Shown: positions 5,677-6,620, numbered from the stretch's first letter. The stretch is 6,620 nucleotides of DNA from a virus (IMGVR_UViG_2671180299_000021); one strand, 5' to 3'. Notes: generated by a model not told the origin, from the letters alone. Made by a program: numbers and translations.

Positions 5677-6288
5677 TTACTCCGGATATTTAAAAATTAC
5701 GTAGGTATGCGAAGGGCAGAGTTTGTTAAGCACACACTCGACAACGGTGTCGCCCCAGATACGCAGTGCGGAATCACAGGGATCACCACATGTCATCCAG
5801 GTGGTGTTGGTGGCAGCTGGCATGTTGACCTGCCAGTAATACCGCCATTCCGGCGCATTCACCGCGTCAGTACAGGCCGATGAGCAGGTGAAGGTGCTTT
5901 TGTCGTATCGCGTGATGGTGGCATCTGGTCTGCCCAGGGCAGCAAGCTGTGCAAGATAAAAATCCTCGTTGATGCCGCCCGCCAGGTTAACCTTCGCATC
6001 CAGCCGTTGCTGACGCTGGCGAAGGGTCTGTGTCCCTGCGGGAATACATTCATCCGGCAGGCCGCACAGACGCTCCCAGCGGTTTATCAGTTCGGTGGTG
6101 GTGCGCGGATCCAGCTCCCGCATCAGGGCATCCGCACGCTGATGAACACGGGTTAATGACGGTGCCGCACCGGCAATCGCCGGATCGCTGGCTGACCACG
6201 CCGGACCGGGCGGCAACAGTGCCGATAACAGGCGGATGTAGTGGCACACTAAATTTGGCCACCTGATGAAAGGTGATATTCTCACCAC
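5677..6288 (-). CDS. ymfQ: Phage tail/baseplate-associated protein, DUF2313 / YmfQ-like; the N-terminal ~16 codons of this ORF are encoded by IS-end sequence (likely 5'-disrupted or chimeric)
   Basis: Identified by synteny (immediately upstream of stf, as in e14) and by the ...[13 protein letters not shown]... N-terminal motif recalled for this family. The ORF runs into the IS3-family left end at about 6237. Confidence 0.65.
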
Positions 6289-6308
6289 AACACAAAACAG
6301 GTGACTTA

Positions 6309-6620
6309 ATGAACAAGAAAACCAAACGAACCTTCACCCCTGAGTTCAGGCTGGAATGTGCACAGCTGATTGTTGATAAGGGCTACTCATATCGACAGGC
6401 CAGTGAAGCGATGAATGTCGGTTCAACCACGCTTGAGAGCTGGGTACGCCAGCTCAGGCGAGAGCGCCAGGGTATTACGCCCTCTGCCACACCCATTACT
6501 CCAGACCAGCAACGTATCCGCGAGCTGGAAAAGCAAGTTCGCCGTCTGGAGGAACAAAATACGATATTAAAAAAGGCTACCGCGCTCTTAATGTCCGACT
6601 CGCTGAACGGTTCACGATAG
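6309..6620 (+). CDS. IS3-family transposase OrfA (HTH/leucine-zipper subunit), 103 aa
   Basis: Start taken at MNKKTKRTF (AGGTGA Shine-Dalgarno 4 nt upstream) rather than the track start at 6273. Ends with the IS911-type C-terminal motif, stop TAG at 6618-6620. Confidence 0.85.
6569..6575 (+). other. Programmed -1 ribosomal frameshift heptamer A-AAA-AAG of the IS3-family transposase
   Basis: AAAAAAG lies in the orfA zero frame as A AAA AAG (codons ...ATA TTA AAA AAG GCT = I L K K A), about 45 nt before the orfA stop, the position used by IS911-type elements to produce the OrfAB transposase. Confidence 0.6.

Follow-up and report, generated by a model that had tools for sequence, protein, structure and literature searches.

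Junction of a truncated prophage ymfQ gene with an IS3-family element: a probable deletion joint anchored on an insertion sequence resident in ypjA

We analyzed a stretch of 6,620 nucleotides (here, the window) in whose last 944 bp the baseplate gene ymfQ of a prophage is joined to the left part of an insertion sequence (IS). This junction is best explained, with a probability that we put at ca. 0.8, as the left joint of a deletion anchored on an IS that was resident in another gene, the autotransporter gene ypjA. The features on which the argument turns are listed below, with positions counted from the first letter of the window.

5677-6236, minus strand: native part of the truncated gene (ymfQ'), coding for a baseplate wedge protein like Mu Gp48; it begins with codon 9 and ends with the TAA stop (5679-5677)
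6237-6240, no strand: TGTA overlap at the junction, defined against intact ymfQ; these four bases open the IS and are the same as nucleotides 22-25 of native ymfQ
6237-6262, plus strand: left inverted repeat of the IS (IRL), TGTAGTGGCACACTAAATTTGGCCAC, with 20 of 26 positions matching the right end; ends taken from five independent copies
6237-6620, plus strand: left 384 bp of a 1258-bp IS3-family element, the remainder of which lies outside the window
6241-6288, minus strand: IS-derived 5' extension of the ymfQ ORF, with in-frame GTG codons at 6288, 6285, and 6249
6260-6264, minus strand: AGGTG, Shine-Dalgarno-like, inside IRL and 10 nt upstream of GTG 6249
6309-6620, plus strand: IS orfA, 103 aa, with a helix-turn-helix (HTH); its TAG stop (6618-6620) forms the last three bases of the window
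6569-6575, plus strand: slippery heptamer A AAA AAG in the orfA frame, at which, reading from the sequence, a programmed -1 frameshift would yield OrfAB

The left end of the IS, which the original prediction had estimated at about 6237, lies exactly there. In all five independent copies compared, the element begins with TGTAGTGG and ends with CCACTACA, and the full copy at positions 9561 to 10818 of locus L001 (strain PS1Thumoskin9) measures 1258 bp, its first base corresponding to window position 6237. The same 1258 bp are found at 100% identity in many unrelated contexts, both on chromosomes and on plasmids. Length and ends fall within the range of the IS3 family (ca. 1.2 to 1.55 kb, with imperfect inverted repeats of the form 5'-TG...CA-3'). 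The orfA gene, located on the plus strand after the junction as had been described, codes for a protein matching the Pfam domain HTH_Tnp_1 (PF01527; E = 8.8e-13) and the N-terminal part of NF033516 (IS3 family), and orfB, which follows it in L001, contains rve (DDE), rve_3, and HTH_21 domains and scores 268.7 bits against NCBIfam NF033516 (cut-off of 160). RefSeq marks the transposase of this IS with a "programmed frameshift." Along similar lines, three independent simple insertions of the same IS are flanked by 3-bp target duplications (GTT, TAA, and ATA), and a further one, GTG, was reconstructed at ypjA (see below), in keeping with the 3 to 4 bp of the family. The element belongs to the IS3 family, all of whose defining features it displays, and its presence at ymfQ without a duplication is evidence for a rearrangement rather than against this membership.

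Domains, ends, and frameshift site also agree with the description of the element as IS911-like. IS911 itself was considered and rejected, since identity to the K-12 copy IS911A was only 67% at the DNA level (first 383 bp) and 57% between OrfA and InsN; by the ISfinder convention, members of the same IS species share more than ca. 90% of their DNA or more than ca. 95% of their transposase sequence. The closest annotated names appear to be ISEc31 and ISCfr6: the IS is 92.8% identical over 1258 bp to a copy labelled "ISEc31 family" in RefSeq (a copy, not the ISfinder reference), and a fragment 99.3% identical to it carries the label ISCfr6. The literature that we found on these two names consists of passing mentions, without a description of the element itself. 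One copy of the same IS, in E. coli F1022 (L016, positions 1 to 1892), is split by a group II intron with an ltrA reverse transcriptase/maturase gene.

On the other side of the junction, the ORF at 5677-6288 on the minus strand (203 aa) codes for a protein of the YmfQ/Mu Gp48 type (PF10076, DUF2313), with 93.9 bits against a gathering cut-off of 37.4. Its residues 21 to 201 (of 203) cover model positions 3 to 149 (of 150), that is, the domain is almost complete. When positions 5677 to 6620 were compared by megablast with a collection of 5,426 complete E. coli genomes, the ymfQ similarity (98 to 100% DNA identity, in thousands of genomes) stopped at 6240. Intact YmfQ has 194 aa and, in a protein alignment, the same N terminus in two prophages (L002 and L007) and in the e14 element of K-12. 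Against this reference, native sequence is retained from Ile9 onward, residues 1 to 7 (MDVTNDD) are replaced by IS-encoded residues, and Tyr8 is regenerated because the TGTA of the IS equals native nucleotides 22 to 25. The native 5' end of ymfQ, expected to be missing, has indeed been lost, by seven codons in this alignment. In intact loci, ymfQ overlaps the baseplate J (gp47) gene by 10 nt; the native start is not kept in the window, and baseplate J is not adjacent to ymfQ' in any of the three genomes that carry the junction. At the 3' end, the ATG of stf (5673) lies 3 nt downstream of the ymfQ' stop.

Both the IS and the truncation of ymfQ are far beyond what chance would produce. The IS-derived portion of the ORF (6237-6288) comprises 17 codons plus one base, where 16 codons had been counted, and the triplet at 6286-6288, taken for an ATG, reads CAC on the plus strand and hence GTG on the minus strand. 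The chance of an open frame of 17 codons is ca. 0.44, and that of an in-frame ATG, GTG, or TTG within it is ca. 0.56. Given that both are close to a coin flip, the chimeric ORF is not evidence on its own, and the extension of the reading frame into the IS is incidental.

Only three of the 5,426 genomes, PS1Thumoskin9, 602687, and CD45 (here, the carriers), covered the 944 bp from 5677 to 6620 in full and at 100% identity. The exact junction 30-mer had no match in two large collections, one of genome contigs and one of metagenome contigs, and the joint has been seen in these three complete E. coli genomes and the window only. In all three carriers, the right end of the IS (IRR) is followed by ypjA' (the 5' 441 bp of the ypjA/ehaD autotransporter gene), pinH', ypjCB, and the tRNA-Ile gene ileY. 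The order in K-12 is ssrA, CP4-57, ypjA, pinH', ypjB, ypjC, and ileY, and the carriers match its downstream part.

The default reading for an IS beside a truncated gene, and the one initially put forward, is a simple insertion. In this case, the IS would have transposed into ymfQ and disrupted only this gene, whose 5' fragment would follow just past the right IS end together with the remaining prophage. The window stops inside the IS, so that its own right flank lies outside; a deletion joint would read IRR and then GTGTGAATTACC, and a simple insertion would read IRR and then GGATGTAATCATCG. We infer that this flank is ypjA', as it is in the three genomes whose sequence over 5677-6620 is 100% identical. 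The carriers argue against a simple insertion, since in all of them ypjA' stands on the other side and the IS is flanked by GGA on the left versus GTG on the right, with no 3-bp duplication, although the same IS makes such duplications when it inserts simply. The target-site duplication that should have marked the other IS end is thus missing. For the reciprocal joint, we used a probe consisting of the last 300 bp of the IS, GGA, the ymfQ 5' end (GGA-TGTAATCATCGTTTGTCACGTCCAT), and baseplate J. None of the 5,426 genomes covered both halves of this probe, which rules out, within the collection, both a simple insertion and the reciprocal product of an inversion; an inversion or translocation in place of a deletion was rejected on this basis. 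We consider a simple insertion highly improbable.

The identical IRR|GTG-ypjA' joint occurred in 197 genomes. In ca. 154 of them, the IS adjoins on its left a truncated GTPase gene from a CP4-57-like island, as in O104:H4 2011C-3493. In five genomes, the left flank is still ypjA...GTG|IRL, so that the GTG duplication becomes complete, and the one of these that was inspected, 2013C-3181, has a deletion of ca. 390 bp on the right. Together, the GTG of the forms with ypjA on the left and that of the IRR|GTG-ypjA' forms indicate that the IS had ancestrally entered ypjA ca. 430 nt into the gene, as a simple insertion duplicating GTG. The resident IS site can thus be placed in ypjA, and the simple insertion into ymfQ that had been envisaged is not supported. 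A literature search for IS disruption of ypjA/ehaD returned nothing useful. As judged from these flanks, at least three independent deletions are anchored on one IS copy in ypjA, the ymfQ joint being the rarest.

The course of events would then have been as follows. The IS would first have resided in ypjA, with its 3-bp GTG duplication. Upstream of it, an SfV/e14-like myovirus prophage would have been integrated at ssrA, starting with cargo, pin, tail fibre, ymfQ, and baseplate and ending with int. Subsequently, the left end of the IS would have become connected to ymfQ, at a point between its nucleotides 21 and 25. Lost in this event would have been ymfQ codons 1 to 8, the prophage from baseplate J to int together with attR, any element in between, and the 3' end of ypjA. 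Measured against the intact prophage of EC1515 and against K-12, the deletion amounts to at least ca. 36 kb (ca. 32 kb of prophage, a 172-bp spacer, and ca. 4.15 kb of ypjA). What was left over would be an immobile prophage remnant with three cargo genes, pin, the invertible tail-fibre segment, and ymfQ'.

The likeliest route to this deletion would be the insertion of a second copy of the IS, in the same orientation, into ymfQ at GGA|TGT, followed by homologous recombination between this copy and the one in ypjA. Its intermediate, the IS in ymfQ with ymfQ on both sides, was not found. Alternatively, a deletion occurring in a single step, with the IS end as its anchor, would give an identical product, and the two routes are indistinguishable from these data. 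A specific version of the latter requires no second IS copy: a break or strand switch that the transposase induced at the left end of the IS would have been joined to the TGTA of ymfQ through microhomology, as proposed for IEE-assisted events at copy-out-paste-in elements. IS3-family elements transpose through copy-out-paste-in (bioRxiv 10.1101/2023.06.07.543989), and microhomologies of 2 to 4 bp have been reported at comparable deletion scars of copy-out-paste-in elements, together with IEE microhomology end-joining (bioRxiv 10.1101/2023.06.07.543989 and PMC9943667). The TGTA identity of 4 bp lies exactly at the joint. A 4-bp match has a chance of ca. 1/256, but this one was noticed only post hoc, and the other two deletions on the same IS copy show overlaps of 0 bp (GTPase' joint) and 1 bp (right-side joint of 2013C-3181). 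These two joints led us to reject microhomology as a general rule at this IS. The overlap at ymfQ is probably fortuitous, and we regard a one-step microhomology deletion as doubtful.

A separate question is whether ymfQ' could still be expressed. The duplexes of the possible starts with the 3' end of 16S rRNA (anti-Shine-Dalgarno) were as follows.

GTG 6288: -1.7 kcal/mol, no Shine-Dalgarno sequence
GTG 6285: -1.7 kcal/mol, no Shine-Dalgarno sequence
GTG 6249: -7.7 kcal/mol, with AGGTG ahead at 6264-6260
Native ymfQ start, for comparison: -7.9 kcal/mol

It had been suggested, as an alternative, that the IS supplies a new start and an outward promoter. In its full form, this functional rescue would have the IS provide start codon, ribosome binding site, and outward transcription, and thereby drive expression of a chimeric YmfQ and of the tail-fibre genes downstream. 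The start could be accommodated, since GTG 6249 is in frame and its SD-like AGGTG gives a duplex almost as strong as that of the native start (a value reached by about the top 10% of 20-mers on the minus strand). The PGAP annotation of RefSeq places the start at the equivalent GTG and calls a complete CDS of 190 aa (WP_024234338.1, L001 9001-9573, equal to window 5677-6249), and the Pfam domain is nearly whole. A transcript crossing the joint would most plausibly be translated from GTG 6249, into a protein of 190 aa starting M-C-H-Y-I-R-L-L. The promoter, in contrast, found no support. A consensus scan detected no sigma-70-like site on either strand between 5600 and 6620, and, over the whole IS and ypjA' in L001, matches were at chance level (4 found versus 3.1 expected), the sole minus-strand match (9/12) lying inside ypjA'. 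The outward -35 of IS911 belongs to IRR (PMC9330008), whereas ymfQ faces IRL, which argues against an outward promoter of this type for ymfQ'. Moreover, the first start of the ORF, GTG 6288, has no Shine-Dalgarno sequence, the baseplate partners J/gp47, gp46, and V are missing from the carriers, and an open frame with an in-frame start is to be expected by chance. We therefore consider functional rescue very unlikely.

Read-through from the ypjA promoter is a possible, though unsupported, source of ymfQ' expression. Taken further, the GTG and SD-like sequence of IRL, with read-through from this promoter (same strand, far side of the IS), would express the chimeric YmfQ' together with the Pin-switchable tail-fibre/chaperone pair, as a domesticated phase-variable module kept alongside the cargo, a scenario to which we assign an extremely low probability. 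We take the chimeric ymfQ to be a relic. The start of WP_024234338.1 inside an IS terminal repeat is an annotation artefact, and the gene merits a 5'-truncated flag.

The remaining prophage features of the window are the following.

894-1925, plus strand: cargo ORF, 343 aa
1977-2321, plus strand: cargo ORF, 114 aa
2406-2618, minus strand: cargo ORF, 70 aa; all three are located after the ssrA att scar and before pin
2817-3371, minus strand: pinE invertase, intact, with Resolvase and HTH_7 domains
3433-5389, no strand: Pin-invertible segment, bounded by 20-nt inverted repeats, AAACGTTGGTTTGGGAGAAG at 3433-3452 and CTTCTCCCAAACCAAGGTTT at 5370-5389

In EC1515, the same element is present as a complete prophage directly downstream of ssrA, in the order three cargo genes, pinE, invertible tail-fibre segment, ymfQ, baseplate J, gp46, V, tape measure, sheath, HK97-type head, terminase, lysis, Q, cI/cro, and int. 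Judged by this order, the prophage of the carriers is defective, the late operon and all baseplate partners of YmfQ being gone. The cargo and pin were expected to be unchanged, and this was borne out: carriers L001 and L013 share with the intact EC1515 prophage the RefSeq accessions of the cargo proteins, of Pin (WP_000904997.1), and of one tail-fibre assembly protein, and the window ORFs are of equal length. The cargo proteins are thus identical in intact and truncated prophage copies; none of the three ORFs had a match in Pfam or PADLOC. The inversion switch, also presumed intact, was found flipped. In 602687, the segment 3433-5389 is inverted relative to the window and PS1Thumoskin9, at 99.9% identity, and the inversion exchanges the chaperone as well as the tail-fibre C terminus (247 aa or 253 aa). 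Given that 602687, PS1Thumoskin9, and the window share the unique deletion joint, the switch has flipped since the deletion, which suggests that it still works in the remnant.

The left end of the window belongs to another mobile element. Positions 1 to 165 code for the C-terminal 55 aa of a Pox_D5-like protein (P4 alpha primase-helicase type), followed at ca. 185-210 by a terminator-like hairpin after the end of this ORF. Within positions 1 to 540, there are two repeats of ca. 130 bp with four copies of TGTTCACC (0.26 expected), which we take to be the ori/crr iteron of P4. This part looks like a P4-like satellite, a different mobile element located at ssrA upstream of the prophage remnant. 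At 663-685, the 23 nt that end ssrA recur in degenerate form (TTCAAACTCCGCCAGCCCACCA, versus TTCAACTCCCGCCAGCTCCACCA in the carriers), as the att scar between the P4-like element and the remnant. All related genomes cease to match the window exactly at this scar, and positions 1 to 662 differ from all three carriers. The stretch between ssrA and the remnant contains nothing in 602687, a lambdoid prophage and a DUF4760 gene in PS1Thumoskin9 and CD45, and the P4-like element in the window (L001 2482-3985, L013 3646-4217, and window 1-662). Since this stretch differs by carrier, ssrA would have kept capturing new elements after the deletion.

K-12 offers a further parallel at this hot spot. Its segment of a 172-bp spacer, ypjA, and pinH' (L008 24973-25144 and 30147-30293) is colinear with the 175-bp spacer, cargo, and pinE of the window (670-844 and 3102-3248), with spacers 88.6% identical and pinH' 85% identical to pin. 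By this resemblance, ypjA looks like the cargo gene of a remnant that belongs to the same prophage family but is older, in which case the deletion would have brought together two remnants, a younger (ymfQ') and an older (ypjA').

The practical value of this case lies in annotation, since the "YmfQ family protein" WP_024234338.1, shown as complete in RefSeq, is a 5'-truncated relic fused to an IS. It is also a clean case that can be reconstructed, in which one IS resident in ypjA anchors at least three independent deletions. It illustrates how such deletions trim the elements gathering at ssrA, an integration hot spot, and that a grounded prophage remnant can apparently retain a working DNA inversion switch. 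Otherwise, this is ordinary genome decay, already annotated, and the understanding of IS3 elements and of prophage decay is unchanged.

Among known systems, e14 of K-12 (ymfQ, stfP, tfaP, tfaE, stfE, pinE, mcrA) shares with the element analyzed here the order ymfQ, invertible segment, pin, and cargo at the prophage end, its YmfQ is 95% identical, and both are defective remnants. The original comparison with a cryptic element like e14 therefore stands as regards the defective state and the pin and invertible tail-fibre segment beside ymfQ, while it fails for the site: e14 is in icd, with an intact ymfQ and mcrA as cargo, whereas this element and its intact relatives are directly downstream of ssrA, with other cargo and an IS-anchored deletion within ymfQ. 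The nearest deposited phages for the ymfQ and tail-fibre region are SfIV, SfV, and SKA5 (92 to 96% DNA identity), temperate myoviruses with a Mu-like baseplate and an HK97-like head whose module order is that of EC1515. They are complete phages, whereas only the final ca. 5.6 kb, from cargo to ymfQ', are present here. The IS resembles IS911 (K-12 copy IS911A) in a near-identical architecture (ca. 1.25 kb, HTH OrfA, an A AAA AAG site, and orfB with an rve DDE domain), and the left end of IS911A, TGAAGTGG...AATTTGGCCACCTGA, is strikingly like the IRL described here, with the common pattern TG.AGTGG...AATTTGGCCACCTGA; its DNA and OrfA identities make the element a different, IS911-like species. 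Finally, IS-mediated adjacent deletions and IS-IS recombination are known in E. coli, for example for IS629 and IS600 with IEE in STEC (background in PMC9943667, PMC9397093, and bioRxiv 10.1101/2023.06.07.543989). They show the same picture, that is, a single IS kept, one original and one new flank, no duplication, tens of kilobases gone, and several independent deletions on one IS copy. Here, in contrast, another IS family member is involved, and microhomology is inconsistent over the three joints.
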